Assembly: GCA_051294905.1 (NCBI GenBank)
Contig: CM119371.1
Span: forward strand, 12,464,001-12,528,000
Source of the DNA: Botryllus schlosseri
Lineage: Eukaryota
Length of the DNA stretch: 64,000 nucleotides
Direction: 5' to 3'
Shown here: positions 25,375-59,223 of the stretch, one piece after another
How positions within the stretch are numbered: position 1 is the first letter of the stretch
Layout of the letters: each line of letters opens with the position of its first letter
Notes under the pieces: model-generated
What the model was told of the DNA's origin: nothing
Seen by the model: the letters and a program-made list of their open reading frames with translations, nothing else
Database searches by the model: none
Translations under genes and position numbers: made by a program

Positions 25375-25706
25375 ATCTCTAACTTATGGATGAAGGTTCA
25401 GCTCCATCCATTCGATCCCGATGCATGGCGAGAAACCTTTCAAAATATGAAATGCACCGTCTCCCGTTGCATTGTTGCTCCGGAAACACCAGAGGTAAAG
25501 TTAAATAAATATTCAACTAACTTGACGCCACTAAATCAGCTAGTCCGCAATTACAGTGTGGGAAAATAGACGTGAAAAAATGGATCGAAGCTGCCAAAAT
25601 CGCAGAAATGGGGCCAATTAAGGAAGTTCTTTTGTCTTCCGCTGATGGTATTCCACTCCAAATTGGAGACATCCGACTACTTAATGCAATACAATATCGC
25701 TGGAAG
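25375..25706 (+). CDS. Repeat cassette 1: exon A 25375-25494 + exon B 25557-25706
   Basis: ttttcag| 120 nt |gtaaag; 62-nt intron with ctaac branch-like site; tacag| 150 nt |gtgaat; ISNLWMKVQLHPFD.../CGKIDVKKWIEAAK... Confidence 0.8.
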
Positions 25707-27831
25707 GTGAATAGATTGAAATATTTGAGCTGGAAAAAATATAGATTTTTGATTGGTGACTTTGTAATGGCAATTATGTCATATATTTTGCCAGGGCCCG
25801 TGGCTGCCGCACCCTACGCCCCCGAAATGGGGATGAAGCGAGCTCGAAGGGGGAAAAATTATCATGTGATTGAATAGAAATTACATATTATTTATTTTGA
25901 GATTTTGCATTATTTTCCAAATTATCTTCGTGCCTTGCAAAATTTATTGTTGCTTACTAGCATCAGATATAATATGATTATCCTTGCCTAAAAGAAAACA
26001 ATACTTTCAAGTTAAAGAAATAGGCATTTCGCGTCGGACATTACAGTGTCACAACAAATCAAGGACTATGAAGTTCCCGTTAACATGGGAATCCGAGAAT
26101 TGTTCTGAAAAATATCGGCGAGAATAAAATGTTGGTCGAAAGTAACGCCCCATGTTGACCAAAACTTTTCTAGTGGTCCAAGTTCTCTAGGCACCTTAAT
26201 CCCACGGATAAATGCCATCCGCATGGAAAACGCTGCTCTCCGTTGAATAATGTCAATTTTACATTGCGCTCGTCGCACAGAAGTTACGCTTTTACTTTAG
26301 TCTGGTACGATTGGTAAATTTTTTCTATGTTATGACTATATAGTGAATGAATGGTCACGGAATAACAACATGCAACAAAGTCAAATCAATAACGGGCCAA
26401 TTTGAATATGAATAATAATTATTAATTGGTTGCCCTAAATTTTCAATGACATTGTTTCCCTGTACTGCCCTTCGTTGTACTGCTAAATCTGATCACATGA
26501 GCTGAGAAAGGATAAAAATTGATAGGAAGATATATCCAATCACCAATAATATTGATCGAATTCGATCATTTCAAAATCTTTGGCGCCTAATGCAACCACA
26601 GATCAGAGAGATACTGACAATTGATAACAAGAGAATTGGCGTTCAGAAGTAGGCTAGTGTCCAAAACGTTATTCATAACGAGGACTTGTGGTTGAATTTT
26701 CCTTAAAGTTTGGCGTATCACCCCATTGGGGATCCCAGAACTTTGTTTTTCGGTGCCGGACAAAGATCTGTTTCTGTCCACGCTGTCGTTGATAAATTCA
26801 ATTGATTAATTCTGTGTGACCATAAAATGCGATACTTCAGTGAGGCATTTTACAAAATATGTACTAATTGAGTATACTCCGAGTGGCTAGTTCGATTTAA
26901 AGCCTTGTTTGGTAGATCCAAAAGGCATTTATAGATCACATATGACACGGCCTTATATAAGTAAATATGTTATTTATCCGTAACGTTGTGTGTTCCTCCG
27001 CGCTCATCTATCCTATCTCATCTACCCATCCTATCTCCTAATCCATCTATACCTACTGATCGGGTTACGCCCGATATCAGTCACAGTCTAACATCGATGT
27101 ATGGATGGTAGGACGCAACAATGACAGTTAAAATCCTCATGTAATTAGGAATATTGAAATTGGTAAAACACGAAAGCTTCAGCGAAAATTCAATTCATTC
27201 AGAGTTCAAGAAACTTCAATTCTCTCAAGCTAATTTGCGCCTCTCAGATGCTTTCATGACCCCCAGTGTGAGAACCACGTAGTGCTGAGGGATATTAGTT
27301 TTTTTATTATGCCAAAACAGACAAGCGGCGGGGCATATTCTAATCAAATGTTTCGCAAATAAGCGGATTCAAGATAAAGCAGGATTCCCCTCACTTTGAA
27401 TTAAATTTTCTTTTCCGCTGTCATTTTGATATTTCGAATGATAGTAAATTAAAATTCACGTTATTTTGACCATCATGTTGAGGTTAGTGTAACTTTATTT
27501 CGTTCCGCTAAGAAGTTCACAGGTATCAGTCTCCTATAACAACGCCTATACGTCTTGTTTATCGACATTAACCACAACCTCTACCTACGTTCGCTCAATG
27601 CTGGTTTATTTCACTTTTTTGTTTTGCGGTATTCATGATGTTTGTCGACTACTATGGTCATTCACACCAGGCCGATATACTTCATTTCCTATTCCGTAAC
27701 TGCCTATTTATGGCACGGTGAAAGAGGTAGCGAAAAAGCCCAATCCCTAATATATGAATAACTTTATCGGCGCATTTTGTTGGGCAATAAGTACATGAAT
27801 CGTAAATATAGATGCGTTGTATCAATTTCAG

Positions 27832-28163
27832 ATCTCAAACTTATCGGTGAAGGTTCAGTTCGATTCATTCGATCCGTATTATTGGCGAGAAACCTTTCAA
27901 AACATGAAATGCACCGTATCCCGTTGCATTGTTGTTCCTGAAATACCAGAGGTAAGGTTGAATAAATATCCAACTAACCTGCCGCCACTAAATCCGCTAG
28001 CCCGTATTTACAGTGTGGGAAAATAGACGTGAATAAATGGATCGAAGCTGCCAAAATCACCACAGTGGGGCCAATGGAGGAAGTTATCTTGTCTTCAGTT
28101 GATAGTATTGCACTCCGAATTGAAGACATCCAATTACTGAATGCAATACAATATCGCCAAAAG
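27832..28163 (+). CDS. Repeat cassette 2: exon A 27832-27951 + exon B 28014-28163
   Basis: Same splice sites and 120/150-nt lengths, open frames; starts 2457 nt after cassette 1. Confidence 0.8.
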
Positions 28164-29649
28164 GTGAATATAATAAAATATTTGAACACTAAAAAATATA
28201 GATTTTTGACGTGGGATTTTGAAATGGCAATCATGTCATCTCTGTCGTCGGGCCCGTAACTATTGCACCCGACGCCCTCTAATTAGGGATGGGGCGAGCT
28301 CGAAGGGGGTCAAAATTATTATGTGATCCTATAGAAATTACATATTATTTATTTTGCGATTTTTGCAATATTTCCCAAATTTTCTTCGCGCTGCTCGAAA
28401 TTTGATGTCGCTAACTAGCGTCTGATATAATATGGTTATCCTTCACTGCAAGAAAAATTACTTTTAAGTTGAGGAAATAGGCAGTTAGCGTCGGTCATTA
28501 TCGTGTCACGACAAATCAAGGCCTTTAAAGTTCCCGCTATCATGGGACTCCGAGAATCGTGCTGAAAAATAACGGCGGGTATAAAATGTTGGTCGAAATT
28601 AACGCCCCATGTTAACCGAAACCTTTCCAATGGTCCAAGTTCTATAGCCGCCTTAATCCCACGGATAAATGCCATCCGCAGAGGAAACGCCGCACTTCGT
28701 TAAGTAATGCCAATTTTACATTGTGCTCGTCGCACAGAAGTGACCCTTTTAGTTTAGTCTGGTAGGATTGGCAATTTTACTATCTTTTGACCATATAGCG
28801 AAAGGATGGTCACGGAATAACAACTTGCAAAAAAGTCAATTCAATATCGGGCCTATTGAATATGAATAATAATTATTAATCGGCTCCCCTAAATTTTCAA
28901 TGAGATTACTTCCCTCAGTTGTACTGCTAAATCTGATCACGTGAGTTGAGAAAGGATAAAAATTGATAGGAATATATATCCGATCACCAATAATGTTGAT
29001 CGAATTCAATCATGAATTTTAAAATTATAGTCGCTTCATGCAACCACACATCAGAAAGAAAATGATTGTTGATAACAAGAGATTTCGCGCTCAAAAGTAG
29101 TGGCTAAAACGTTATTCGCAACGACAGCTTCTGTTTGAATTTTTCTCGGAGATTGGCTTACCGCGCCATGGGGGAGGGGGGATCCAAGAACTACGTTCTG
29201 AGTGCAGGACGACGTCCTGTTTTGGTCTAGGCCGTCGTTGAGAAATTCATTTGATTAAATCTGTATTGCCATAAAATTCGATACTTAAGTGAGGTATTCT
29301 ACAAAATCTGTACTAATTGACTATACTCTGAGTGGCTACTTTGATTTAAATTCTTGTTTGGTAGATGCAAAGGGCATTTATACATCACATATGACTTCGG
29401 ATTTTATAGGGAAATTTGTTATTTCTCCATAACAACTATGACTGTTAAAATCGTCATATATAATTAGTATTCTTGCATTTGATAAAACAAGAAAGCTTCA
29501 GCAAAAATCGAACTCATTCAGAGTTCAAGAAACTTGATTTCTCTCAAGCGAATTCGCGCCTCCTTCAGATGCTTTTATGACACCCAGTGTGAGAACCTCG
29601 TAGTGCTGAGGGATGGATTTTTTTTATTATGCGACAACAGACAAGCGGC

Positions 29650-31426: not shown

Positions 31427-31783
31427 GCTGTCATTTTTATATTTCGAGTGATAATGAATTAAAATTGACGTTATTTTGCCCATCATGTTGAGGTTAGTGT
31501 AAGTTTATTTCATTCCGCTAAGAATTTCATAAGTATCAGGCTCCTATAACAACGCATTTACATCTTGTTTATCGAGATTACCTAGAACCTGAACCTACGT
31601 TCGCTCAATCCTTGTTTATTTTATTTTGTTTGTTTTATTGTATTCATGGTATTTGTCGACTACTATGGTCATTCACACCGTGCGAAAACGCCCAATCCAT
31701 AATAGATGGATAACTTTATCGGTGAATTTTATTGGACAATAAGTATATGAATTGAAAATATTAATGCGTTGTATCATTTTCAG

Positions 31784-32114: not shown

Positions 32115-32925
32115 GTGAATAGAATGAAATATTTGAAATGTAAAAAATATAGATTTTGGATTGGGGATTTTTAATGGCAATTATGTCATCTCTGTGGCCA
32201 AGGCAGGGTTGTAACCAAGTCACATGGTTCCGAGTCACGAGTCAATCTTACTTTTGTGGTTTTGACTCGAGTCAAGTCGAGTCATTTTCAATTCATCACC
32301 GACTCGAGTCCGAGTCCAAGTCACCGTGTGAAGGGTCAAGTCCGAGTCATAGTGTTATGACTCGAGTCGAGTCCAAGTCACAGTATTGAAGTCACGTTCC
32401 AACTCATGTTTTCAATCCTGCTTGGGTGATATCGAATTCCTTGCTTGCCAAACATGCTCATTTTGTCCCTATCAAGAGTCTTGGCACGTGTTTATTTAGG
32501 CATATAACGGACAGGTCCTGGCCTCATTTACTGATGCTACAGATAACTTTACTACTCTTAGATTTTAAAATCAAATATCTGTCTTGTCAGTCTGATACAT
32601 CACCAGTACAAGCATTCAGTTTTTATTAGGAGCACATCGACGACAGCTTACATATAGCTGATAGAGAGCCAACGAATTCACGTTTATCAGACTGTCTGAT
32701 AGAGAACCAACGAATTCACGTCAAGATACCAGCTGATAGAGAATCAACAGATGCATGTTTATGTAGAGGTATTTACACCAGGTCAGCATGCTGTAAAAGC
32801 GTGCATGCAGCTATGTGCATTGTGCAGTAACAAAAGTACAGATTCCTTTTGATATTACCATAAAAAGGTTTTCCCAATTTTATTACAGACTACATCGCAG
32901 TTACAGCATTGGAGAAATAACTGTA

Positions 32926-33413
32926 CAATGGGGCTGTTCATAAACATTTTTCCAAATTTTCCGGCTACTTCAAAATTGTTAGATTGCCTAAAAAATTCAA
33001 ATTTTGCTCAATTCTAACCAGTTGGAAGCAATGCTATGAAAGAAAATTTTGGAATAATTACAAATAGAGATTTTCGAATTATACCGGCTATCTCATGATA
33101 TTGTTACATTGTGTAAAAATATGATTCATAGCAAATTTGCCTCAATTCCAACTAGAAGAACTGAAGTTATTAGAGTAGAATGTTTTGGATATGAGAAATA
33201 GTCGGCTTACTACTAGCATGTTATTATATCATATGAAAGAATTTCTCACTAAAGATACTCCACGTATTTTCAAATCAAAAATTTTCTCCTCTCATATCAT
33301 TGATTCTACTTTGTAAAATTGAGCCAGATTCAATGTTCTTTCTATTCAACGTATCAATTTTATCAAGTAGCCACCAGTTAAATAAAAAATAAGTTATTTT
33401 AAAAGCCCCACTG
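32926..33413. mobile_element. Tc1/mariner-like MITE
   Basis: TA|caatggggct ... agccccactg|TA. Confidence 0.55.
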
Positions 33414-33939
33414 TACAAACATCACGAAGCAATAGCCATTCATTATTACCCATGTGCACAATGCACATACCTAACAAAAGGTCAAATGGACAGAGGGTAT
33501 TGTGTGTTTTAACAGACAGCAGATCAAATCATTGAAAACGTCAAATTAACAGAGGGTATTGTGTGTTTTATCAGTCAGCAGATCAAATCAATGACGAGTT
33601 GCACTTCAAAAATACCAAAGTGGAAAGGAGATCCTCAGATATATTAGAGCGGCATGGCCTTATAGAATAAATCCAACTCTACTGATTACACGTTCCACAG
33701 GTGCACTAGATGCAGGAATTGACAAGCATTTTTGAACCACACTGAAGAGCATTGGATACTCATTCTTTCGAGTCGCCCAAAAATGCAAAGAATCATCGCT
33801 TTCAAATCTACACATGAGCTTATCAGTCTCTTCCAAGTACTTGACCATCTAAGTCATTGCATTGGCTCTAATTGAACTTTGCATTGTTTGCTTGTATAAT
33901 TGAAAAGTCTTAAGCACTTTGATTGCGGAGGATCTAGTA

Positions 33940-35184
33940 CAGGGGTGGGCAAACTACGGCCCGCGAGAGTCTGAAGAAACTTATTAAAAATATTGATTAA
34001 ATGCGTACTAAAAATCGAATATTATCGAATCGAATAGTATATTTCAACATGATAATTCTAAGACAGTGGTCCACAAACACTGTGGGGATGGCTAGGGGCG
34101 TGAGAGTATCTGAAGGGGGGCGCGAAGCAAAGCTCGAATGAAATTCTTCCGCTTCGCGCGATTTACCCCAATTTCATATTGCTCTGTATTTAGTCTGAAT
34201 TTCATATTTAAAAATCTCTCATCCACAGTCATAACCTTCCATGCCGTTAAACTATCCGTTACGTTTTTCAGCCTCCTGGTTGCGGTTTGCGATATGACGA
34301 TAAGAGGGGGCAAAAACTTTCACCATCATATGGGGGGGGGGGGGGCGTGTTTTAAGAACTTTGAGAACCACTGTTCTGGGGTAAATACTTCCTATATTAT
34401 TTTTTATGGCGCGATAGCTCGATCTCAAGGCCCACGCAGTTTGAAAAGTTTCAACTGCCAAACAGCACATAAATGCTAAACGAGAATTATATAATGACGA
34501 GTGTAATTTCAGATTATCCACTCCAGTTTTAATTATTTTAGTGATGTGGTTATCAAAAACGATTCGCGCGTGTCTTCGGTAGAATCGTTCTCTGTATGCG
34601 TAGAATTAGGGCAGTGGTTCTCAGAGTGGGGGTGCGCCACCCTTGGGGGCGTGATAGCATCTGAAGGGGCGCAAAACTGCGGTCAACTGAATTTTTTTTC
34701 GCCCTTCGCGCGATTAACCTCTAATTCATGGTCTTTGCTCTGTGTATAGTCCGAATTTCATATTTCTGAACTCTCTCTTCAACAGTCATAACCCTACATG
34801 TCATCAAACTGTGCGTTGGGATTGCAAGCATTCTGGTTCCATTTTGTGATATGATGAAAAGGGGGCGCGAAATTTTTCACGATCCCCAGGCGTGTCTAAA
34901 GAAGTTTGAGAACTACTTAATTAGGGTATTTATTTTTTATCTACACATAGTATGAATGGTGTTCGAAGCTAACATGGTTATGATGTTTATGACGCGTGTA
35001 CGATATCGTCAAAGCAATATTTGGTTTGTTTTAAGTAAGCATATATATTATCTCCATGTCCTCACTATATAATCAAATACCAATATTGCGTTTTGGTTTA
35101 TAATCCCAATTTTACATAATGCGGCCCGCGAATGGATTCAGATGTTGAATGCGGCCCGCGAGCTCAAAAGTTTACCCACCCCTG
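33940..35184. mobile_element. hAT Charlie-type MITE inserted in the transposase gene
   Basis: TIR caggggtgggcaaact / agtttacccacccctg; perfect TSD atctagta; carries two small cagtggt MITEs. Confidence 0.9.
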
Positions 35185-36819
35185 ATCTAGTACCTCTTCA
35201 TCACCGGATCATTTTGTAGCTTGGCTGGTCATATTGTATGAATGAGTGTCAGCCTCAGTCGTTATCAACTCGATTATTTTCTGACGCAGTGCAATTCGGG
35301 ATTGTTCTGAGCAATTTAGATCCATGAGCCAATGGAAAGCAAATTTCGGATCGAGCACGCAGGATGTGAGGTAGATGGTTTCACCAAACGGTTCGGGATT
35401 ACCGATAGGCCTATCCAAAGACTCATTAGTTGTGATCATGTTCACATTTTCAAACACTCCTGCAAAACGCTGTAAAAGAGAATTCTTCAATGCTTCAACT
35501 AATGCGCGCAAGTAATTAACAGTGAGGATGTGCCTATTTGCATGGTGGCGAGAGCAGGGTTGGTACGACACAACTGATGGTGGGTGTATATTCTCTCTGA
35601 GTGAGATCTGTGGCAATAGCAAAGGTCCAAAATACCAAAATATTGATAAGTTTTTTCAATGGGGCATTTCCACTTCATTTTGAACACTAGGGGAGATAAA
35701 GATAACTCGACCCAAAACTGTTTTGTTGCTATATGCTTTACTATGGGACTGGACTAAACGTGGACCTAATTTCGTCTATTGAAGTACAACGAGGATGGTG
35801 AAAGTATCAATATCAATATAAATCATCCATAAGGATATCAAATAGCTGTTACCGACGAAAATGATGCTATTTCTTGGCGTCTTGTCCTCGTGATGGACAT
35901 AGACATCCTAGCAGCTTACATTGCTGTTAATTTTCGAGAGTCATATGATATGGCTGTGCTCATTGTGTAAGGATGACGGTCATTTGATCTCAAAAGATGC
36001 ATCAAACAGAAATAGAAAGTTATCGTGAGGATGGTTCCGTTTACAAAGAGGTATAGATGCCTGGTCCTGGAAAAGTTGTCTGCAGAATATCATTTCACCA
36101 ACATGATTTATCCGGCTTATCTTGCAGTTAATCAGCTCCCCCATGAGCGTTGTGTGCGTTATGGAAAATCATGCAATGTGCAGTTGCTGCTGTGTGGTCC
36201 TACAACATATAAAAATCATGTGTTTGAATTACAATGAAGCTGATGAAACTTCAATATAGGAAGCATGACGTCATTTTTCTACTGCCAACTGAAAGACATC
36301 CCAGCAAACACATTACGGCATGCGGCCATCCGTCGGATAACTTGTCATTTGGCCCAGATTCATCCTAGTGCCATCCGGTTGAACCGAGCGCGTCGACTCT
36401 TGGTGTTATCCAGTGGGTGACCTCTGACTATCCATCAACTCATTTTTGAGTCACTTCCTGGCCACTGTAGGGACAAAGTCCTGTTGGGACCGATATCCAT
36501 AGACTATCCACTGATCTAACTTCTGAATACTAGCTAGCTCCTGGACCTGCATATTTCCTTACCACAGGTTAGGCGACGCACAAATACACTTAAACAAGAT
36601 TGATTTTCAGGCAAAAAGCTTCTATTATCACATTGTCAACAATAAAAGTTGAGCAGCAATGAGTAAAATCGACAACGGCTGTAAATCACGTCAAAATCAA
36701 TCACTCAAGTTTAAGAGATACAATAAAGCAGCAGGTGCACTCAAAAATAACATAAGTAGTCGATCAATCAATTAATCAATCGGGCCAAGAATGAAATGAC
36801 TAGGAACTATGTACAGTTG

Positions 36820-37330
36820 TACACTGGGGAAAATACCACACATGGGCTAGTGGTGAAAAATAAAAAGGAAGTTCGAAGCAATTACCTTCAATTTCGTCCA
36901 TGAGAATAAAAACAAGACACGCTCCGCATTACACATACACAGCTATATCAGAGGTTGGCAAGTTTTGAAAATCATTATAGGCAATAGTAAAAATTTCAAC
37001 AAAAGCACAGCAAAAAGTCGAAGCAACAACTGTCAAACAATCAAGGTGAAGAAGCATGCACACTGGGAAGATTACAGAATACGACACATGGGCAAGTGTT
37101 GAAAAATGAAGATAGGTCGAAGCAATTACCTAGAATTCTGCCAATGAGAATATAAAAACAAGACACAGCACCGCACTACATGTATACAAATGTATCTGAA
37201 ATACAGAGGTTGGCAAGTTTTGAAAATCATTATGCAACAAGACAAAGCGATAGGCCTACATTACAAATTGCAGTGAAGTAGAAAAACGCACAGCATCGAG
37301 TCAAAGCAACAACCGTCAAATCAAGTTGAA
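36820..37330. repeat. Diverged tandem duplication of ~240-250 bp
   Basis: cgaagcaattacc and cagaggttggcaagttttgaaaatcatta each occur twice. Confidence 0.8.
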
Positions 37331-40300
37331 AAAGTACGTTCACAATATGATAATTCCATAGAAATGGGTGGTTGAAGTTCTCCAATGACAGCAAAAATAC
37401 ATGCACAGGGAACTACCTGTTGTTGACATTCAAGATGGCAAGTATTGAGGTGAAGAGGTAATACAAATAGAGATACAAAAAATAGGATGTTTCAGTCTGG
37501 TCAATTGGTCGTTCCGACATCCTCTATGTGCAGATCTGTCCCACATTGTGCAAGGTGTAGTGTGACAAATAATAAAACACTTCTACTTGGTTTTTCAGAC
37601 ATAACCAGTTAGATAGCCCCTATAATGTAGCTATAGTGAGAGCAATTTAGAAATCACACTATAATTAAGTGCCATTCTATATTTGTTGCGGTGATATATC
37701 CTGCAATTTCGAAAGCGGCCCCTACCTACTGCAGTAACCTACAAGTGTGCGACTCGTTCTACTTTTGGAAAGTACTCAGGTAGTCAGATTCAGATCCACC
37801 TTTACTTGAGCAGCAAGGATGACTCACTTTCACCTCTTTTTGATCGTATATACCTTGTCTAGAGCGGATGAAAATAATGATCAGCAGATTCCACTGTAAC
37901 TTGTAAAAAATTCCAGAGCAAGCATTGCACACTTGCAATCAACAATTTCTCTAGCTGGAAATATCATCAATCTCGATACAGGTTTAACTTGCAACGAGAT
38001 GAAAAGTTGGTATGATGGGAAGAAAGGTCTTTACACAGCATCCTCTTTCTCGTCATCGTCTGGGTAAGGCTGAGACTGGATATGGACTGTTCGGCATGCT
38101 TGTCCTAAAATAAGTAGCAAAATCATTACAAGCAAACATGAAATAATCCTTCAAAATGCTACCAATTCCTAACGCCTTGCAAAAAATATTCAAATACTTA
38201 CTAAGTACAGCATACTATGCATAAACACACAAATCATGAATATTAAAATTTACGACCATTATTGAACAGTGGACACTAGGGGTAGGGGTGTCCAAAGAAA
38301 CTTTTTTCCAATTTCATTGGATTAGTTGGCAAATCATTAGGGTACCTAAAATTACCTTGCACAACAAATTTAACTAAATTTCAACCAGTAGAGGCCAAGG
38401 TCATCCAATTCTAAATTCCAATCATTTTTCAAATAATAGTATTTACGGTGGAAAATTTCACCACTCCGAGATGATCAAAAATGCGTATGATGCAGGGATG
38501 CTTTTCTCCACCCGTTTTCATCTTTACAAGGGCCTATGCTAGAGTTTGGATGAAGACATTACCAGTTGGTGAATAAAAGATATGACACGGATTAGCTGGA
38601 AATTAGTAGATTTCATTGAAATAGGCAGTAGACACGTTCAAATGATGGTGAATTGGTGATATTCTTTGCAAATAAACTACTTTTCACATTAAAATTAACG
38701 AACACGAAAACGAAAAATAACTGACACGCAGGTAAAATACCCCCTACAAAATGCTGAAACGCCAAATTTTTGTATATTTCCATTTTCAGGTCATTTCGAT
38801 ACGACATCAGCGCTGTCGATGAGCGAGTCCGTGATATCGCGTAAATGCTAAGTATTAACCATTAACCGATACACTCGCAAATAATTGAATACGCAGATTC
38901 GTAGGCGGCGACAAACTAATGCTTGAAACGCCCCAGTAAATTGTAATCCTGGATTTCGACATGCAATTGTTGCGATGTCAGACTAGGTTCCAACCCATTG
39001 TGCTGTAGTCAAGTTAAGGAATTACTGATTAGATGCGCTGGAGCCTACAATATTCGCATCGTAGGCCTCGGATGCGTGCTTTCTCGTTTGCAATCATCGG
39101 TAAGCTACTGATTCGCGTCTGCTTTATACGCTCGTATTCCTTCAGTGTCACTTGTCGGTGTTGGATTTGTTATTAATAATGCGCATTGTGCAGTGCACAG
39201 CGTTTGATTACGTTCTCAAATTTGATGCAACACGAGATTCTCGGTGGCGCAAATTCTGAATTTATTCGATTAGTTTGAACGGGAACCTTCTACGTTCCAA
39301 TACATTAAACTTCAATGGACTCGACACACCAAATTTGGTTCAATTCCAGCCAGTAGTCGCATTGCTACAGGAGAAGAAAGTTCTGATTCATTAATATAAA
39401 AATTATTATTAAAAAAAGTTCGGGTTTGAGTCTTTACGGTGACCGATTCTTTGTTTATTTACTATAGTTATGCTCACTGTAAATACTATTTTATTCAAAT
39501 CCAAATTTTTTGAGGACAATGACTCTGCTTCCACTGGTTGGAATTCAACCAAATTTGGTTTGTAGGCTTAAATTAGCTAACCTAACAATTTTATCAAGTA
39601 GCCAAGCCTGCACGCTATAATTGCTGGCATGAACCTTAATGTGCACCGGGCTACGCCTGATATCGTTACCAGCCTGAACTATCGAGTTAGAGTCTACAGC
39701 AGGACTGGCGCATGTGATAACATTGCTGCATGGCCGTAACTATAGCGTCTGCTACAGGCATGATTTGCCTGTTATCTCTATTTATTCGATCGTTATGATA
39801 TACTGGCTTAATACTGACAGTGTCAAATTGAATAGCTTTAAATCAGCGCAATTGGCCACGAACAGACGCGAACGGACATAATTGATAAGCGCTAATAGGC
39901 CTACTAAAACATCAGAAGATGCATGTACTTAACCGTTTTAAACGATGCTAACTTGATAAATTTTTAACAATTTCAAACCACTCCCTTATTTCATCTGTTC
40001 ACCCTATGTAGAAATAAAATTCGGCGCCTAGAAGTATGGTTACACAATATTACCATTATGTGCTCTCCGCATACATTTAGCCAATCAATATTGCATCTAC
40101 CTCGTATTGCTGATTTCTGTTTTTTGGATGGTGCATGGCACAACGCAGATCTGACTGCAATTCTGCTGTCTTTTTCCGGAACAGTCGTAGTAATATTGCA
40201 ACAAGCACCTATACAGGAAGATTATATTAAACAAATTGAGACGCCAAACTAGTTTAACCGATGATATACAATATTGCATTAACTCAGTGCACACAAAGAT

Positions 40301-41510
40301 TTCTTCTCAGTTCTGCCCAACTTTATCAGTTGCCACTCTATTGGGAAACTCAGCACAAATCTAATAAACATACTATATACTCACAATTTCTAGTAGGAAA
40401 TTCCCAGCAGAATGAACCTAGACGACTCTCTATGAAGGGCTACTTGCTGGGACAACGTATCTGAACAGATGAATAACAGTCAGTGGCACCTCAAACACAC
40501 ATATTAACCGGCATGGCATGAATAAACGCATTGAAGTAGGTATAATCTTATAGCTGGCGAACTGAGCGCAAAATTCAACAAAACAGGTCTAAATTGAAAG
40601 CTACTTTTGCAAATGATTCAGAAAATATCAATTAATATCTAGTCCGGTCACTGAAACCCCCCCCCCCCCCCGAAAATTGCCTTCAAATTCAGTAAGGAAT
40701 CGGTGCGACAGTAGCTTTCGATTGAGACCTGTGTAAGTGTAATTAAATTGTGCGTTCTGGTCGCAATGAGCTATAAGATTATCGTTGAGTTATCAAATTG
40801 GTAGTTTCTACAGTCACCATTGCATGTGCATAAAAAATTTCAAGAAATTCATAACTTACATATGCAGTTTTAAGCTCTCTATATTTATACTCAGCTCTGC
40901 TTCTTCACTATACTTGAGAGTTTAATAAACTTTTCAGAAATCAAACGGTCATAACTGCGGATTTCTTGCTGTTTTGATACCATATCGAGGAATTAAGCTC
41001 TAACCTGCATTTGATGAATTATTGATGCACTGTCAGTATATTCATGACATTCCTGGCAGATTTCCTTTTACACTTTCTTCAAGATGCTGAGATTCCTTTT
41101 CGAACTGCTTCGCCTGAGCTTCAGCAAGATCCGTATCAGTGGAACATGTGCGTTTTCTTCTAATCTTCGAATCGAATCGAATCAGACCTTGAATCGGAAT
41201 CATATTTAGTAGATCTTCATATATATTGTCTTTTCCCCGCAACTGAGCTATCCATAAGTTAGTATTGCAATATAGTACTCTTGCGTAACGGAACCATATA
41301 GGGCTGGGTAGAATTGAATATCGGTGCTTTAATAATACAATTTCGAAGCCAAGCAATGATATCATAATCATGATTGCAAAACCAGCAACCATGACTCAAG
41401 TTGGGCTTCGGGTCGAATTCAAAACTTCTGATATAGCCCTTTGTCATTATTAGTCAAAAGCTACCTTCCAATCCATTTTTAGTTATAAATCGCAAAACAG
41501 TAACTCTTAC

Positions 41511-44048
41511 TAGGGATGGTGTGAACGTGAGGTTCACGTTCGCGTTCTATGTGTGAACCTCGGAAATTTACAGGTTCGCGTTCACAACAAAACCTTGATA
41601 GGTTCTGCACTGTGAACCTTCATCATATATTACAATTTTCACTTCATTATAACATCTTTCGTTAAAATTTATTGCATTTCAACTGCGGGCCACTCTATGC
41701 ATTGCGGTGGCAGCATAAAAAATCAACACTAAACGAGCATGCACCTTGACAATCTCAAAAGTTTTAGTTGCGTTGTTACAAAAGTTTGCTCGAAATATCC
41801 AGCTTCCCTTCGTAAATATTTAGTGACTCTCTGCTGTGAGCCTGACCCGCAATCACACAACATCACGAGCGAAATGCGTAGTCAGCGAATGATGCTTATC
41901 CAACCAAGCAATGAGATTGATATCGTTTCTGATGTTAAAAATTTAGCAGGCGTGCGGGGTCAATCTTGACTTCATATTTTACTGTATCATTAAAGCCAAA
42001 TCCGTACCGTTGAGGTGTTGGCTACTGTTTTATAGAACTTGTTAATGGGTTAATATCGGCAGCAAGTATAGAAACCAGTTTTACTCTCTGCTCAATATCA
42101 ATGTAGCAATACTCAGACGCTGAATGCATTGTCCGGTCAGGCCTAGACTGTTAAGGATTAAGCTTATATTCCCTGGTAAGCCCTCGTCGAAATTGCCGGC
42201 TAAGCGACGGAGGATATCGACTTTATTGGATTATTATATCCTTTGATTGCCTCAGTTGATACATTTAGCGACGTCTAAAACGCCAATATGTACTCCAGCA
42301 TTGTGGCATTATGTGGCCCGAGTCGTCGCTAGGTATCGTGTACAGTGTTTACACCAGAGGTCTCAAACTCAAATGTGCTCGCGGGCCAATTTCCTAATTT
42401 GTGATGACCCGCGGGCCGCAGAATCAATGAATAGGGGTATTCAATCTATAATATCCTACTAGGCCTTATTTAATGGCACCTTGCAGACAGGCATTCCACA
42501 ACCACCGAAAAAATGTAATTTACTATTATACGATTCACGCTTCGCAAACAAACTACATTTTCAAATATTTGAATAAAATGAATTTTGTGTCGGGCATAAT
42601 TTGTTAGAAATAATGAGTTTAGACATCATACGAGAAGACGCATGATGATATCGTATAAGCTGTTGGGTTGTAATATTGCAGCTATTGGACCTTTGAAATG
42701 CCACAATTTTATGTAGAATATTTTAGAATTCACTAAAGATTGATCTGATATCAGAGCTTGTGAGCGGTGTAGCCTAATCGGGGTTTCTGATATACACGTG
42801 ATAAGTATAGGCTATTGTTACTGTCATTGCCAAAGTCAAATTAAATCAGCGTTAGGTTTTCTTCAATTAATGTTGGAACAGATAAATAACAACTGAAATA
42901 TAATCATTATTGCTCCATAGTAATAGCATTGTTTCTTAACCGTTTTAGCGATCGTACCCCTTGTACTTTCAATTAGATTTCCAGTGACCCCTGTCGATTT
43001 CCAACACAATTTCTGATGGGACCTATAAAAATCAGAAAGCCCATTTACATAAAATCGCGCGTAGCGCGAACAATATTTTCCAGTTGAATAAATTGGCCCA
43101 GAAAATATTCCACAGCATATAGGCCAATTTCCACAATGCATCTGGTACCCCCTGATGTGGTGCTTTGTACCACGAAGGGGATACGGACCCCTGGTTAAGA
43201 ACCCCTGGAATAGAAATGACTATTCGCCGAAGAATCCACTGGTGTTACAGCTGTGGAGCGTACCACTATAACCGATAATAACATGGACAGGGAGAGCAAA
43301 CAACATCCAAGATGTAACCAAATATACGTCACGGGGGCCACAGAATGCCAATGGTTTCCATACAGACCTGATTCGATTTCTATATTCTATATACCCTACG
43401 CAACGCAAGCTACGCGCTTTTGATATAGTACTATTCCCCCATTGCCCAGTCACTATTCCGGGAGGCAAGTCCTTCTCCGATTTTAACGTTCGACCCTATA
43501 CTCAACTCGAGTCATTTTTAGTTTATCACCCAGTCAATTAAAAATCGAGTAATTTGACGAAAGGTCGCACCATACAAAATAACAATTTTCAGTAACGAAA
43601 CATCAACGGTTCATGCTTTGTCATCATGAACCTGAAATGCGACGTAATAGCGATCTTCAACTGCATGGTAGATTTTAGGAAGTGATGTGATAGTGAAGTT
43701 TGTTTAGATTTCAGGTTTTTGTAGTAGTTTTGGAGTGAACTGTAAGTTCCTTAATCTACAAAAAGATATATGACACTAGAATATATTGTCGAATGGTTGA
43801 AATTGTAAAATACCTTCGCGGGCCGCACAAAATGTTCTCGAGGGCCGCATGCGGCCCGCGTGTTTGAGACCTCTGGTTTACACTCTGTCACATTAATATA
43901 GGCTATCACATCATTGAAAGATAGGATTGGAATCAGCAATATGACGTCACGTGACGTCATGAGGTTCACGTTCGCGTTCACACAGAACCTTTCAAAAAGG
44001 TTCGCGTTCACACGAACCTGAACCTTTCAGAGGTTCACACCATCCCTA
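41511..44048. mobile_element. hAT-like MITE with 5-bp TSD
   Basis: TIR tagggatggtgtgaac / gttcacaccatcccta; cttac on both flanks. Confidence 0.85.
42355..43875. mobile_element. hAT Charlie-type MITE
   Basis: TIR cagaggtctcaaac / gtttgagacctctg; TSD gtttacac. Confidence 0.9.
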
Positions 44049-45893
44049 CTTACCTTATGCTGATCAAAAAATCAGGTTTGGTTACAATAGAAGGACGTAC
44101 TATAACAGTGTCAACTCTAAACAATAATAGGCCTACCGAACATCCATCATTGCTCTTTACTATAGTGATTCCATAACCAAGCCCAATTTCGTTGTGCACA
44201 GACGCCACTTCTGACTATAACGCATCATTGACTGACTACACTAACTACAACCAGCGGTTATGATTAAGTTATCACCGACGTAAGTGGCACACAGCCGACG
44301 TGGAAAACGCGTCTGGCCGCTGAAAACAATTCACTTCACAGAATCATTACGGTTCAAACTTCCCAGATGAAACTTTGAATCACGTGAACTGTGCTCGCTG
44401 CGCAATGCGCCACTGCGCATGTAAGGGAAAAAAGCTAACGATCTCATTCACTTCAGGCTTCACGCATAGCGCTACGAGACGCACGAGGAAAGCTCGTCAA
44501 TCGATGAGTGGTATTCACCGCAGGAACATCGGTAAAACATTAAGCGGCACAAAAATTGTAAAGTTTATTACATGCTCGAAATAAAAGTACGGAAGAGAAT
44601 ATACCATTATCGAAGTCGATAATACCATCAACTATTCAGTACCAGCATATAATCCATATGGCGATCAAGTCATAAAGAAATACAGATTCACTGTGCGCAG
44701 TAACCATTTCTGCCGACCCACTAAGCGCATTCAAGTGAAAACCGCTAAACATCTCACGGTATGACGCACGCAAAAAGTCAGTAACATCTTTCGGAACGGC
44801 GAATGTTCGCCGCTGGAACAAACAGTAACACAGCACAACAGCCAGAAGGGCACAGAAATAGCAAAGTTTAAAAGCTTGAAATGTAGGCCGAACAGGGAAT
44901 ATCGACCATTCAATGCCAGCATACATAATCCGGTTACGTGACGTCGGTGACGAATCACATCCAGTGACGATTTTCTTTCAAATTCTCTTGAAATATTTTT
45001 AAATTCTGAAATATGTGCAATCTGTGCATATCAGTGCCAGGAGTTAATGAGAGGTTGACGAAATAGAACTATCCTCACACTGTCCGAATATGATATCCTT
45101 TGGAATTCTGATTCGCATTTTCAGTGAACTATCACCAATATCAGTGTGCAAATGTACGATTTTTGTTCGAACTGTACTCTTTAAATATTTTGAAAGGATG
45201 AAATATGTGCATTTATCAGCAAGAGCTTGAGAGGTTGACTTTTTAGCTGAAGCAACATGGAAAAATCCCCACACTGTCAGATTATGGTATCCAGTGGAAA
45301 TTTAATTGTAAATTTTAGTGGACTATCCCGAATGTATTTCTGTATGTATGTCCGAGGATATCCGAACCGAACATTTTCGAACGTGGATAGCCAAGTATTA
45401 GCCCACGTCTATCCAACCGGACACTGGGACACTCGGACACTGCTTGGATAGCCCTCGGCAATTATGTGTTTGCTGGGATGGAAATTATGCTTACTTGTAA
45501 GACAGTGAAGCAAACGATCACATATGTCCTCGACAAATCAGGATACCCAATGAAAAGCGCACTTGCAAGAATGGAAAAAGCAAGAAAGAGCTGTGGAAAA
45601 GAGACTGACATGAAAAAAGGAGCTGTGACATCGGGCACTAGGCCGAGGTGGATGCCAGAGACCGCAACTGCAATCGCAACTGGTCGTTCGGCATCCTCCT
45701 ATCTGCTCATTAGTCATTGCATCGCATTGTACATTGCGTGTGCGTTGTTCAGATGAAAGTATAATCTGACGATTATCATTTATTGTAGGCTGCTCGGTAC
45801 AGATACTCTTATGATATGTATCTGATACATTATGTTGGTAGCGCAACGAACTTTGCTAAAACCTTCAAGATTTTCCAGTACAACTATCTAGAT

Positions 45894-47324
45894 CAGTGGT
45901 TCTCAACCTTTTTGGCTTCGCGGACCCCTTTTGACCGTCACGGACCCTCGCGGACCCCCTCAAGTTTTAGTTCAATTTTAGCTCTATTATGGTGCAACCT
46001 TCATCTGTCTTGTGCAAATATGAACTGTAGGCTTGTGATAAACAGCAAAATAATGATTTTTCTTGAAGATAACATCATACTATTTACGTGTGGTGGACTT
46101 TTATTATTTCAAAGCTAATTTTGCTGCTGTATTTCTTGAACTACGTGGTCGTGTCTTGAAAATCCGCGTCTGCGTTTTGATATGAACGAGGAGTCCGAAA
46201 ACCATTTCCGCAAAGATAGATGGAGGCTAATGCAATATTAACGCATAACTCTTCGCTTCCGACGATACTTTTGGTGTGATCGCAACATTTATGGTACCAA
46301 AATGAAGAAACACATATTTTATGAACATATCACGTCCAGCATCTAGCACAGGGACGGGCAACATACGGACGGCTGGCCGGATTCGACCCGCGACGGCATT
46401 TTGATCGGCCCGCAGAGAGTTTCTACCGTCAAAGTGAAATCCTAATCTAAAAGTATAGACAAATTTTATGCTCCAAATGGATCCAAGTTTTCCAACCAGA
46501 GAAAGACTGTCATGAAACGAATTGTTCTGTTCAGGTTTACATATACATTTACGAGTAAACATTTTCGACCATGAACAATTCGACATTAACAAGACAAGGC
46601 TGCATACCAATATAACTGGTGATATGAATTTCAGGGTTCGAGCGTAATGCTTTGATAGCAACGAAACACTCGTTGTTCATCAAAAAATCAGCCTTGTCGA
46701 TAGGGCATCCGCAATAAGAATGCGCAAAATCTGATAGCCGAGCTTTAAGACCAGGTATATTATTGTCCGATTTATGACGAGTGTCAGCCGAAAATATTCG
46801 GATTCATTTCAACATGAATATACTATTCAATTGTATATTAAAGTTCTGTACCTCCAAGAAGCTGTTCCCTGCATTGGGACAAATTATGGAAATACTTCGG
46901 AAATTTTTATTTCAAACGACTGTTCACTAATTTGATGAGACTACGACAACTTCAAATCGAGAAGGTTTCGCAGACATTACGAAGTTACCCTGATTGACGT
47001 TACTATCTCCATATTTTTATTTTTTTCACAGACCCCAACAAAACGTCTCTAAACAGCAATATGTTTGTATCAGCAGGTTATTGGAATATTTGCAATGAAA
47101 ATGAGTTTTCACACTACGATAGTCCATGTCGGACGATTATTATGATGATATGAGTCATGAGGTTTTAGCAGTTGTGGTGCGAAACTGCCTCATGCTTTCT
47201 CAAATTAAAAAATAAAATAAAAATTAGGTTATCAACCATTTTAAAAATTTAGAGGTCTCGCGGACCCCCTGAAATTGCTTCACGGACCCCTAGGGGTCCG
47301 CGGACCCCCGGTTGAGAACCGCTG
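45894..47324. mobile_element. hAT Charlie-type MITE
   Basis: TIR cagtggttctcaacc / ggttgagaaccgctg; TSD atctagat; cggacccc repeats. Confidence 0.9.
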
Positions 47325-47664
47325 ATCTAGATGATCAAGAATGACCAATGCTTGTGAGCTCATTTTTGTGTTACAATCTGCAAGTTCCTCATTATCATTC
47401 TCGTTGATTATTCTTGGATATGGTGATACTATTTGTATCAATTGGGTTTCCACCGTAGTATTTTGCTTTGTGTCTTAGAGCAGTCCCATACATGGGTTTC
47501 TCAAATAGCGGGTTGACATTCCTTCAACCAAGTTAATAATTATTATGTAACCGAGTAATAATATGACCATGAATAATACGTTACTTCGAAAGTTTATGTG
47601 CTTACTATACAATTTATATCCTGTGTCGGGCAAAAAAATATTCGAGATACTCTGCTTGTTCAAG

Positions 47665-47830
47665 ATAACTGCAACAATACAGCTGGTACATCATATAATT
47701 GTCAATCATCAGAGAGGATGAGATCTAGTTGGTATTAATTAGTATTATAACTGCAACAATACAACTGGTACATGGTTCATCCTTCAATTGTCAATCATTA
47801 GAGAGGATGAAATTTAGTTGGTATTGTTAT
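47665..47830. repeat. Tandem duplication of ~85 bp
   Basis: ataactgcaacaatac...gagaggatga..tagttggtatt twice. Confidence 0.75.
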
Positions 47831-50800
47831 AGTATTTTATCATTTAAAAACACCAACAGATAGTGATGAGATTAAAGGATAAGAGGGTATTGAAATACAT
47901 GAAGTGTTTCAATCAGACAGCTATTTGGCCAAGGTTATAATACATCTAGAAAGGGTTTGTGTGGAATCCAGTCCATCTGGTGAAGTTATGAGTGATAAAT
48001 GGGGAATATAAACCAATACAGTTGGTGATAAGGATAGAATCATAATTTCAGCACTTCCAAGACAGGACAAGACGCCAAGAAATAGCATCTTTATCATCGC
48101 TAACAGCTATTTGATATCTATATGGATGATTTATATTGATGTGGATACTTTCACCATCCTTATTGTACTTCAAGAGACGAAACTAGGTCCATGTTTAGTC
48201 CAGTCCCATAGTAAAGCATATAGCAACAAAACAGTTTTGGGTCGAGTTATCTTTATCGCCCCTAGTGTTCAAAATGAAGTGGAAATGCCCCATTGTGACC
48301 ACTCACGTGCCGAGAATATCATTTCAGGGTGACCCACACTTTCACATAGTTCACTCAGCTGTGTATGATCCAGGGCACAAATAGGGCCTACTTTGTACTT
48401 CAAACAGCATGGAGTCCATCTAGTTTTGTTTGATGTAGCGATGGACTTCCTTTCTCCAAATTTCGATTCGAAAGTATCTTTGAATATTGTGCTTGAATGG
48501 AGCAAATCAGATAAAGCTGACAGCTTTGATAACGCCGGTCGCATTGGAGTTCCACGCTCCAACCCATCTTTTATACATAGTTGACGGGTGTGCGCGAAAC
48601 AAGCAAGGCGGCCCTGCGTTACCGTTTCAGATATTTCACCAAGAATTTGCTCATGACCTTCCGGAGTCTTCCACATAGTTGCATTCTCAAGAGAATCCTC
48701 CGAACCGCAATCATTGCCACCCTGGGCAAATCAAAATGAACTGAAAAAGCCTTCTTCATATTGGCAGCATTGTCAGTAATGACATAATCTAATTTGTCTT
48801 TTATGCGGAATTCGACCAATGTCTTCTCAAAGGCTGCTGCAATATTTTCCCCAGTATGCCTCCCGCGAAATCGATTACAGGCCAACGTATAGGAGTCGAT
48901 ACTCATTTTATTTGGGTTCAAAACGTACGCCGTTACTCCTAGGAAGGACATCATTTTTCTATCTGACCAGATGTCAACGGTAGCACTTACAGATCTGGAG
49001 CATTCCAATTTCTTCGTAATGCTGCTCTTGACTTCCTGGGCTTTGACGTGTAATTGTTTTTTGACCGACCCTCGACACAATGGCTTATGTCCAGGGGCTA
49101 AAATTTGTAGAAATTTCTCGAATCCGGGTGTTTCGACAATTCTGATAGGCAGGCTTTCGCAAACGATAAGATCATACACAATGCTTTGATTTATTTGGGT
49201 TGCTAATCTGCTGCCTGGAACAACTTGTCTTGCGTTGGTTCGACTCCCAGAAATATATTCGGTTATAGTTGGCTGCGATTCGTCAATGGTCATGTTTTTT
49301 GAATCTTTAACTGATATCTGTATGAATGGAGAAGAAAAAACGATTTTAATGATTTAGACGGGACTTTGTCCACTGATACCCAAATTCCTATCTCAACATT
49401 TGGTTAGCAGACCGCAATGGAATATTTTCGTTACACTTGATTTTAGTATGCCAAACCCTCATATGGAATATCAATATATGGTCAATTTCAATTCACACAC
49501 ATATTAACAATTCTTTAGGTTCCACAAATAGACTGAATATAGTAGCCATCACTCAATACTCTAAATGAGTTTAAGACACATTTGTCGCAAAGGTTATAGG
49601 GGCATTATTTGGATTTAGCCTGTTCAATATCTGATTTCTTAAAATATCACGCATTTAATAATATGTCATTGCAATCAAGAACAACTTTACATTGAAACAT
49701 ATGTAGCGATCAGTGCTTAAACAGAGATCCTCAATATATATAACACAGTACTATACCAGTAAGAAAAACATCTGTACTAGTACTGGAGTAATCATACATA
49801 CTGGTCTGGATGACTTTGCTTGAGGTGTCTCGTGAAGTTGGACGTAGTGCCAACTTTCTCGCATAAAATATTCTGCTTCACGCACAATTTACATTTTGCA
49901 ATCTGTTTGCTACCTTCTCTGACTTCATAGCCGCTGTATGCAAACTGGATGACAGTAGGTGGTCTGGACATAGCGAAGTAACTAAAATCTAAAGTAACCT
50001 GCGAAACCGTCTCAGCATATTAGCGATTGCCTCAGAAACAATGCAAAAATCCATTTTCCACAACCGCTAAACATCTAACACACGCTCGATGCCATTCATA
50101 ACAACATCTCCTCTCCTCGCGAACTGTGCTCTCTGTCATGCGTCCAGCCGAAGAAACGACATACGGTACTCATGTTTCGTAACAATGCGTTGCGACTATG
50201 TACTATCGTCTGTTGTTTTTGCGACGGCATATCTGATATCAGACGAGTGCAACGAAAGCAGTGGTGACAAATAGCGATGTCGGCAGAATTCGTCAGATTT
50301 GTTGAACTAGGCATTACGATTCGAAAATTTATTCATCTTCAAGTCATATAAAATCAGCCGATTCATTGACTTGGGTCGAGTCATGCGTAATGACTCGAGT
50401 ACAAGTCGAGTCAATCCAAATATTGACTCGAGTCGAGTCGAGTCATTTTCCCATTTCCAGACTCGAGTCATTACAACCCAGGGCCAGGGCCGTAGCGTCG
50501 GCACCTCACGCCCCTAATTGGGGATGAGGCGGGCTCGAAGGGGGCAAAAATTATCATGAGATTCAACAAAATTATATATTATTTATACTGAGAGGTTTTT
50601 ATTATTTGCCATATTACCTTCGCGCATTGCAAAATTTATTGTCGCTTACTAGCATCAGATATAATATGATTTTGTCCTTGCCTAAAAGAAAACAATACTT
50701 TCAAGTTAAAGAAATAGGCCTTTCGCGACAAATCAAGGCCTATGAAGTTCCCGCTAACATGGGACTCCAAGATTCGTGCTGAAAAATATGGGAGAGAATA

Positions 50801-57642: not shown

Positions 57643-57974
57643 ATCTTAAAAATATGGGTGCTGGTTCCGTTCGATTCATTCGATATCGATGCATGGCGAG
57701 AAACCTTTCAAAACATGAAATGCGCCGTCTCCTGTTGCACTGTTGCTCCGGAAATACCAGAGGTGATGTTGAAGAAATATTGAACTAACCCGACGCGACT
57801 AAATCCGACAGCCCGCATTTACAGTGTGGGGAAATAGACGTGAAAAAATGGATCGAAGCTGCCAAAATTGCTGAAATGGGGCCAATTGAGGAAGTCGTAT
57901 TGTCTTCGGTTGATAATATTGCACTCCGAATCGGAGACATCCAATTACTGAATGCAATACAATATCGCCAAGAG
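57643..57974 (+). CDS. Repeat cassette 4: exon A 57643-57762 + exon B 57825-57974
   Basis: Same lengths, open frames (ILKIWVLVPFDSFD...); exon A donor weakened to gtgatg. Confidence 0.75.
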
Positions 57975-58748
57975 GTGAATAGAATGAAGCATTTCAAAAG
58001 TAAAAAAATATGAATTTTTGATTCGGGATTTGGTAATGACAATCATGTCAGCTCTCTCGCCATGGCTGTGACTGCCGGATCCCACGCCCCCTAATTGGGG
58101 ATGGGGCGAGCTCGAAGGGGGCCAAAATTAATATGTGATTTGATAGAGATTATATCGTGTTTATTTGGAGATTTTAGCAGCATTTCCAAATTATCCTCGC
58201 GCCGCTTGAAATTTAATGCCGCTAACTAGCGTCTGATATAATATGATTGGATTACCCTTCCATACAAGAAAAAAAACTTACAAGAAACAGGCATTTCGCG
58301 TTGGACATTACCGTGTCACGACAAATCAAGGCCCATAAAGTTCTCGCTAACATGGGACTCTGGGGATTTATCTGAAAAATATCGTCGGGGAGAAATGTTG
58401 GTCGAGAGTAACACCCCATGCTGACCGAAAACTTTTTAATGTTCCAAGTTCTGTAGGCCCTTTATCATTTTGAATTGAAATTTCTTTTTTAGCTGTCATT
58501 GTGATATTGCGAGTGATAATAATTTGAAATTAACGGTATCTCGACCATCATGTTAAGGTTAGTGTAACTGTATTTCGTTCCGCTAAAAAGTTCTCATGTA
58601 TAGGGCTCCTATATTAACGCATATCGAGGTTAACCAGACCCTAAACCTACGATTGCGCCGTCCTTAATAGATGTAGAACTTTATCGGCGCATTTTATTGG
58701 GCATTTAGTATATGAATTGCAAATATCAATGCGATCTATCATTTTCAG

Positions 58749-59079
58749 ATATCAAACTTATGGGTGAAGGTTCAGTTCGATTCATTTGATCCCGATGAAT
58801 GGCAAAAAACCTTTCAAGACATGAAATGCACCGTCTCCCGTTGCATTGTTGCTCTTGAAATATCAGAGGTATGTTGAATAAATATCGAACGAAAAAGACA
58901 CGAATAAATCCACTGGTGCGCATTTATAGTGTGGAGAAATAGATGTGAAAAAATGGATAGAAGCTGCTAAAATCGCAGAAGTGGGGCCAATTGACGAAGT
59001 CATCTTGTCTTCGGTTAATCGTATTGCATTCGGAATTGCTGACATTCGATTTATGTATGCAATGCAATATCGCGAGAAG
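58749..59079 (+). CDS. Repeat cassette 5: exon A 58749-58868 + exon B 58930-59079
   Basis: Same splice sites and lengths, open frames. Confidence 0.8.
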
Positions 59080-59223
59080 GTGAATAGAATGAAATATTTG
59101 AACAGTAAAAATTGCAGGTTTGTGATTGATATTTTATACTGGCAATAATGCCATCGCTCTGGCCAGGGCCGTAACTGCCGATACCTAATTAGGGTTCGGG
59201 CCAAAATTATTGTGTGATCACAC

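Follow-up and report, generated by a model that had tools for sequence, protein, structure and literature searches.

A tandem array of two-exon, phase-0 repeat cassettes downstream of a NACHT exon in the ascidian Botryllus schlosseri

Vertebrate NLR (nucleotide-binding domain, leucine-rich repeat) genes are, in the portion of the NLRP3 study available to us, normally built of in-frame modular leucine-rich repeat (LRR) exons; those of NLRP3 are exactly 171 bp each, with borders at a fixed position of the beta-sheet, and in human cells one of them is skipped (Hoss 2019, PMC6642158). According to the accessible extracts on the zebrafish NLR-B30.2 family, each LRR there sits on a single exon and a gene carries 0-6 or more than 20 of them (Howe 2016, PMC4852459), and a 2024 survey, in the part at hand, gives ascidian NLRs as NACHT-LRR or NACHT only, without CARD (PMC11508797). 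The locus described here lies in the ascidian Botryllus schlosseri, on a 64-kb stretch of contig CM119371.1 (12,464,001-12,528,000; hereafter the window, from whose first letter plain coordinates are counted), where a NACHT exon is followed on the same strand by five tandem cassettes of two short exons each. Genome-wide searches covered one assembly of 495 Mb. Among the excerpts of the literature on ascidian and tunicate NLR repeat exons that were accessible, no description of this cassette was found.

The likeness to vertebrate NLR genes is one of layout. As far as the NLRP3 text at hand goes, both have a NACHT exon and then short repeat exons of fixed length, with borders at fixed positions of the repeat and symmetric phase, and the alpha/beta repeats that are predicted here resemble the ribonuclease-inhibitor type known there (~28-29 residues in vertebrates). 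The module, however, differs: two exons (120 and 150 nt) and approximately three repeats here, against one 171-nt exon and two repeats in the vertebrate genes of that text, and the cassette sequence is not recognized by any LRR profile that was tried. Alternative splicing is documented in those extracts for human NLRP3, and is not documented for the Botryllus locus. Within the same partial sources, in-frame modular LRR exons and copy-number variation between paralogues are already known from vertebrate NLRs; what appears to be new is the two-exon, phase-0 module and a sequence that falls outside the profile libraries searched. With the zebrafish family, as the extracts describe it, the locus shares a large lineage-specific expansion of NACHT genes in which the number of repeat exons varies between paralogues (1-5 here), but it belongs to another phylum, has a two-exon cassette, lacks B30.2 and showed no fixed, conserved LRR at its end. 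Four Styela clava proteins entered as 'uncharacterized' (P0001-P0004) likewise end in tandem near-identical repeats that differ in number between paralogues; unlike the cassette of ~90 residues, their repeats are ~55 residues long (read by eye) and match Pfam LRR_6.

Two further systems invite comparison. Mutually exclusive exons of Dscam swap within one Ig domain by means of docking/selector RNA pairing, and the Botryllus locus resembles Dscam in being a tandem array of similar, equal-length, in-frame exons with clustered differences; its units are instead predicted solenoid repeats, and no specific pairing element was found in it. Fungal NLR repeats, reportedly the subject of Paoletti et al. 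2007, are said to lie in one exon, to be near-identical and to be continually reshuffled. Here, too, C-terminal repeats of a STAND/NLR receptor vary in number and at particular positions, but the copies are clearly diverged, carry no conversion tracts and do not cluster by gene.

The cassette array and its coding constraint

An earlier note on this DNA, made from its letters alone, had pointed to at least five frame-intact exon pairs in the sensor region of an NLR, and all five were recovered by motif scan and alignment (Table 1). Exon A is 120 nt and exon B 150 nt in 5/5 copies each, AG acceptors and GT donors are preserved in 10/10 cases apiece, and neither a stop nor an indel interrupts the 450 codons (1350 nt) of the array. 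All exons of the array have phase 0 and lengths divisible by three, and any of them could thus be skipped in frame, as the note had observed. The introns between A and B measure 62, 62, 61, 62 and 61 nt in cassettes 1-5. Each cassette sits within a tandem copy of a ~2.3-2.5-kb unit downstream of the NACHT exon; start-to-start spacings are 2457, 3952, 25859 and 1106 nt, and intron sequence of the unit type extends past cassette 5 to ~61956. Five is a sound lower bound, given that two older, diverged cassettes lie upstream of 25375, while a tblastn search (cut-off E 0.01) of the 10 kb following cassette 5 (locus L007) returned no A or B exon. The variable peptides listed in the note and its scaffold motif KWIEAAKI (5/5 copies) were confirmed; a second supposed constant, WRETFQNMKC, is common to 4/5 copies and reads WQKTFQDMKC in the fifth.

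Comparison of the copies identifies the cassettes as constrained coding exons. Mean identity among copies is 86.7% in exon A and 83.9% in exon B (80-92% pairwise for the exons, a DNA difference between copies of 13-16%), against 70.8-79.1% in the internal intron and flanks, and gap positions number 0 in the exon alignments against 0.8-21.6 per pair in intron and flanks, in keeping with the earlier contrast between spacers with many indels and exons with none. It is unlikely that the five frames are open by chance: in a neutral star-tree simulation of 20000 trials all five copies were free of stops in 0.44% of trials when the differences were as many as those observed, and in 0.125% when divergence was set to that of the intron. 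The ratio of nonsynonymous to synonymous substitution (dN/dS) averages 0.62 among the five copies (10 pairs) and is uneven along the cassette, standing at 0.32 over codons 1-27 of exon B, which contain KWIEAAKI, at ~1.0 over the first 17 codons of exon A, and at 1.29 over codons 28-37 of exon B, the variable cluster of 10 codons. Since these sub-exon regions are short and were picked after inspection of the data, the value above one may only be suggestive of diversifying selection.

The exon that precedes the array carries the NACHT NTPase by which an animal NLR gene is recognized. Pfam NACHT matches the largest open frame (ORF 4350-5975) at 2e-13 (51 bits, cut-off 26.7), and the open NACHT frame of 541 codons contains a GQPGSGKT P-loop and the motif FFDGLDQ. 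Its closest named proteins are Styela clava NLRs (33-34% identity over 4353-5762, E ~1e-81), and a Clavelina protein matches at 27% identity. A CAG/GT donor at 5785 leaves a single nt of a codon, in agreement with the entry phase of exon E2, which tblastn aligns to residues 724-813 of Styela P0001, in the post-NACHT region. Splice phases agree along the whole chain from the NACHT exon through E2, E3, E4 and A0 to the cassettes, and we infer that splicing joins the cassettes to the NACHT exon, in a gene that would extend from ~1 kb in the window to 59 kb or further. An open frame at 1019-1258, with short N-I-x-G-like repeats that resemble, as judged by eye, the repetitive N-termini of Styela clava proteins, may be the first coding exon.

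Table 1. Features of the window; L001, L004 and L010 are loci with which exons were compared
Feature	Coordinates	Strand	Description and basis
NACHT exon	4354..5784	+	probable boundaries, from Pfam NACHT match, Styela clava alignment and donor phase
Exon E2	13035..13342	+	308 nt, entered in phase 1 and left in phase 0; helical stretch after NACHT, with the first LRR-like motif
Exon E3, A-type, older cassette -1	22696..22827	+	132 nt, phase 0/0; open frame conserved against L001, L004, L010; AG/GT read directly
Exon E4, B-type, older cassette -1	22904..23044	+	141 nt, phase 0/0; open frame conserved against L001, L004; splice sites read
Exon A0, A-type, cassette 0	23287..23409	+	123 nt, phase 0/0; aligns to cassette-0 A exons of L001, L004; splice sites read
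Exon B0 remnant, cassette 0	23467..23495	+	alignment with L001, L004 breaks after ~29 nt
Cassette 1, exon A / exon B	25375-25494 / 25557-25706	+	motif scan and alignment
Cassette 2, exon A / exon B	27832-27951 / 28014-28163	+	motif scan and alignment
Cassette 3, exon A / exon B	31784-31903 / 31965-32114	+	motif scan and alignment
Cassette 4, exon A / exon B	57643-57762 / 57825-57974	+	motif scan and alignment
Cassette 5 (last), exon A / exon B	58749-58868 / 58930-59079	+	motif scan and alignment
Largest insertion block, intron after cassette 3	32205..50482		transposon-rich; unit homology ends at 32204 and resumes at 50483

Paralogues and the history of the array

The NACHT family of the genome numbers 90 members or more, counted as scored matches at E <=1e-20 among 205 first-look candidates and distributed over many contigs. 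Most of these matches have open frames of 450-580 residues, and clusters occur, for example at C16 1.19-1.93 Mb and C12 3.10-3.18 Mb. Four NACHT exons are 79-88% identical to that of the window and form with it the five closest (79-100%); for each of the five, cassettes lie 10-30 kb downstream on the same strand. All 15 genome matches to exon A and 16 of the 17 to exon B fall downstream of these five NACHT exons, and the 17th exon-B match lies on another contig beside a NACHT exon of 54% identity, whose gene has alternating A-like and B-like exons 33-50% identical to those of the window. The placement of the cassettes within the layout of an NLR gene, first proposed for the window alone, is supported by their recurrence in four paralogues.

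The number of canonical cassettes varies among the five genes: five in the window gene (W), four in G5, three in G2, where a deletion has also left one half of a B exon, two in G3 together with one divergent cassette, and one in G4. From the recurrence of the cassette in paralogues and its varied copy number it follows that the two-exon cassette is old in the family, and that its number has been altered by duplication and deletion. The expandability by unequal recombination that had been suggested for the array finds support between paralogues (1-5 canonical cassettes and two exon-deletion scars); no alternative haplotig with cassettes was present in the assembly searched. Two of the four closest NACHT paralogues (C1:11594768-11596177 and C1:11431407-11432813) contain one in-frame TAA each while their cassette exons are open, and are probably young pseudogenes.

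The paralogue G2, a neighbour of the window gene, is collinear with the window, its NACHT exon and cassette 0 being only 8 kb apart. Between the NACHT exons of W and G2 the ratio of nonsynonymous to synonymous differences per site (pN/pS) is 0.24 over 470 codons, and E2 is 92% identical between the two with zero gaps (pN/pS 0.62). In a maximum-likelihood tree of 16 cassettes (16/16 rows used) the eight cassettes of W and G2 form one clade (100/100), within which the W copies do not make a group of their own: the closest relative of W_c3 is G2_c2 (95/91), and a weaker pairing unites W_c5 with G2_c1 (83/75). As cassettes differ from one another in pS (~0.20) about as much as the W and G2 NACHT exons do (0.24), the amplification mostly predates the duplication that separated the two genes. 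The sister pair W_c3/G2_c2 has a pN/pS of 0.43, its exons being 92% identical (249/270) against 84% for the intron (51/61), and constraint thus went on after the gene duplication in at least one lineage. The earlier note had also invoked the fungal mode of shuffling highly similar repeats and had suggested that gene conversion be looked for among the copies. Neither idea fared well: exon identity reaches only 80-92%, W and G2 cassettes interleave in the tree, and there are no conversion tracts and no homogenization, the longest invariant run among the eight W/G2 copies being 9 nt (P 0.75 by site shuffling).

Cassette -1 and cassette 0, upstream of the array, record erosion as well as growth. 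The homology of cassette 0 to G2 stops at 23494, and from 23496 the sequence is of the type that forms the intron after canonical B exons; the abutment of these two implies a deletion that took most of exon B0 plus its donor. A transcript chain that skips the remnant keeps its frame because all exons are phase 0. A second scar is found in G2 (L001:5143-5214), where only the latter half of a B exon survives, with no A exon to accompany it; the 24 residues of this half are 79% identical to those of cassette 4.

These observations give the following history. The ancestral gene already held the diverged cassettes -1 and 0. Its last cassette then multiplied, with the 2.4-kb intron unit attached to it, through tandem segmental duplication or unequal crossing-over, before the split of the window gene and G2. 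The copies have since diverged by 13-16% under coding constraint, as their introns gained transposons and suffered deletions.

Insertions and inverted repeats among the cassettes

The homology of the tandem unit is split at three places in the intron after cassette 3 (~32204/50483, 50879/56316 and 56556/57001), which implies ~23 kb of inserted DNA in that intron. Within the largest block, two arms of 232 nt (35657-35888 and 48064-48295; 94% complementary, 12.2 kb apart) are possibly the ends of one large DNA transposon. A transposase-like frame adjoins them (ORFs 48272-49353 on the minus strand); its ORF 48622-49353(-) has 43 genome matches, two of which are 91% identical and belong to open frames 432 and 644 residues long, and it gives no Pfam match at E 0.01. 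Between cassettes 2 and 3, a MULE transposase domain (30615-31076, Pfam 9.2e-08) accounts for part of the extra 1.5 kb of the spacer. These findings confirm in part the more than 25 kb of transposons claimed for the spacers: ~23 kb of insertion in one intron and the MULE domain were found, and the figure as a whole was checked only to that extent. Just past cassette 5, a 1.56-kb insertion (59222-60786) is 96.5% identical to a copy in a paralogous NLR locus (L004:6654-8212) and is a young mobile element.

Inverted copies of one repeat family (6733-7384 and 63254-63810) bracket the region from E2 through cassette 5. They are 84-90% complementary over ~650 nt in four collinear pieces, and such arms could pair in the pre-mRNA. 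Separately, an element in the intron of cassette 1 (26440-26580) recurs in inverted orientation in intron 1 (6772-6864), and matches of 6772-6864 to 26478-26569 and its copies are the sole inverted ones between unique parts of the gene and the cassette introns. This pair was considered as a candidate for docking/selector pairing of the Dscam kind and rejected, the element being a repeat that is dispersed through the genome, its 585 first-look candidates spread over many contigs.

What the cassettes may encode and how they may be used

There is reason to think that the cassette encodes LRR-like repeats. The exon A and exon B alignments were folded separately with AlphaFold; the exon A model (mean predicted local distance difference test, pLDDT, 82.3) has strands at E3-8 and E31-36 and a helix at H15-21, and the exon B model (pLDDT 62.7) has helices at H6-17 and H36-49 and strands at E23-25 and E33-35. 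If the short exon B strand E33-35 is left out, the main strands start at cassette residues 3, 31 and 63, and that of the next cassette at 93, which gives strand-helix units of 28, 32 and 30 residues, or three per ~90-residue cassette. These lengths match the period of ribonuclease-inhibitor-type LRRs, hence the LRR-like reading. The variable residues fall at or just after the first and third strands while the helices carry the conserved motifs, and variability at strands over conserved helices is the usual pattern of an LRR sensor. In the Styela relatives, moreover, Pfam LRR_6 repeats come after the same NACHT. Three ribonuclease-inhibitor-like LRRs of 28-32 residues per cassette are accordingly to be regarded as a model that is likely but not proven.

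Searches with the cassette itself returned little. An exon-B profile run against 1.84 billion proteins gave two matches at E <=0.001, one to a fragment of 52 residues and one to a repeat protein of low complexity, the latter taken as spurious; among proteins of 89-2000 residues 0/18 candidates scored with exon B; the ESM Atlas yielded no usable match to the cassette; and when the 40-residue model of exon A was compared with the PDB by Foldseek, none of the 360 matches listed at E <=10 reached E <=0.001.

The ordinary reading of the locus, which we consider reasonably probable, is that the array forms the C-terminal repeat domain, LRR-like and with mostly constitutive inclusion of its exons, of a lineage-specific ascidian NACHT receptor. 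The domain would serve as a sensor or as an auto-inhibitory region; all cassettes would normally be included, and skipping would at most be occasional and in frame, as in vertebrate NLRs.

Several observations weigh against this reading. No Pfam model, LRR or otherwise, matches the four cassette exons submitted at E up to 10, and hhalign of the cassette against the Styela LRR region returns a probability of 0.2. With exon B0 destroyed, the ancestral exon chain cannot be rebuilt intact. Comparison by blastn and tblastx of the sequences that follow the five paralogues revealed neither the 3' end nor the stop codon; collinear blocks shared by W and G2 lie at 66.9-73 kb, beyond the window, and none of them is a conserved open exon. 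Four bulk RNA runs under the same species label, of unknown tissues and sampled to 6-13% (1.1-1.9 billion letters each), were aligned to 12900-32899, a region that takes in E2, E3, E4, A0, B0 and cassettes 1-3. Depth was zero in all four runs in the bins of cassette 1 and of E4/A0/B0, no more than 0.33 in that of E3, and 0.1-1.7 in those of cassettes 2 and 3, where a variant at 27663 and a molecule end at 27640 fall in a fragment that recurs elsewhere and loose ends at 32204 and 32229 fall at a transposon boundary. None of the 14 RNA joints listed for the four runs touches a cassette exon. E2 is covered solely in run X11, in which 13 of 15 reads show the G2 bases at 13147-13148 and 8/8 carry at 13202 a base matching neither W nor G2, and its reads are therefore not assignable to the window gene.

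A query with the NACHT exon listed no RNA run. The repeats at 15568-20903, in the intron between E2 and E3, are matched by many reads in each of the four runs, with bin depths as high as ~33; most of the aligned reads fall in this 15.5-20.9 kb region, and as 92-100% of them continue into unlike sequence, they stem from other copies of transcribed repeats. The RNA result is thus silent on isoforms, and constitutes weak evidence of low expression in these samples.

It is conceivable, though unlikely, that the gene is silent or decaying, and that the array is a relic which was constrained until recently and no longer forms a receptor domain. The truncation of B0 and the ~23 kb of insertions in one intron would suit such a history, as would the in-frame TAA in two of the five closest NACHT paralogues and the half-B remnant of G2; the absence of reads from cassette 1 and E4/A0 in the four RNA runs points the same way, weakly in view of the small sampling and unknown tissues, and so do the failure to find a repeat-containing protein among those of 89-2000 residues and the two matches of the 1.84-billion-protein profile search. 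Several features speak against decay. The NACHT frame is open over 541 codons with a pN/pS of 0.24 against G2, the ten cassette exons together with E2, E3, E4 and A0 retain open frames and undamaged splice sites, the sister cassettes of W and G2 retain the mark of constraint after gene duplication (pN/pS 0.43), and even the loss of B0 leaves an in-frame chain, every exon being phase 0.

A greater departure from the ordinary reading, and a distinctly improbable one, is that regulated combinatorial or mutually exclusive splicing, by skipping of cassettes or by joining the A exon of one to the B exon of another, draws many sensor variants from one gene, as the earlier note had entertained with Dscam in mind. 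Phase-0 exons in multiples of three and cassettes that differ at clustered positions would suit such a system, and the loss of B0 requires at least one non-ancestral in-frame join for a full-length product. Vertebrate NLR LRR exons do get skipped, on the available part of the NLRP3 report (PMC6642158), but since in-frame skippability is normal for those exons, the in-frame design seen here follows a general rule of NLR LRR exons and is no special sign of diversification. Solenoid domains, moreover, normally include their repeats instead of picking one, and the locus lends the proposal no support, with no cassette joint among the 14 from RNA and no unique docking/selector pairing. The extension of this idea, that combinatorial cassette use gives single cells or individuals different NLR sensor domains, concerns a chordate lineage that is not known to have antibody-type immunity, and such use could perhaps be helped by the bracketing inverted repeats at 6.7-7.4 and 63.3-63.8 kb; we regard it as highly improbable. 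Equally hard to sustain is a separate transcription unit for the cassettes, unjoined to the NACHT exon: no read joins the two and 17 kb, much of it transcribed or transcript-matched transposon sequence, separates the NACHT exon from E3, but order and strand are repeated in all five closest NACHT loci, the spacing in G2 is only 8 kb, the splice phases fit, and the Styela homologues have their repeats right after the same NACHT and helical region.

Taken as the repeat domain of a NACHT receptor, the array reveals no new mechanism of diversification on present evidence. What the locus documents is the growth and erosion of a repeat domain in a lineage-specific tunicate NLR family, by duplication of an exon-pair unit, in-frame tolerance of exon loss, and the loading of introns with transposons. 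Because current profile libraries and protein collections do not recognize the cassette, gene callers probably miss these exons, and the cassette is useful for the annotation of ascidian NLR repertoires.

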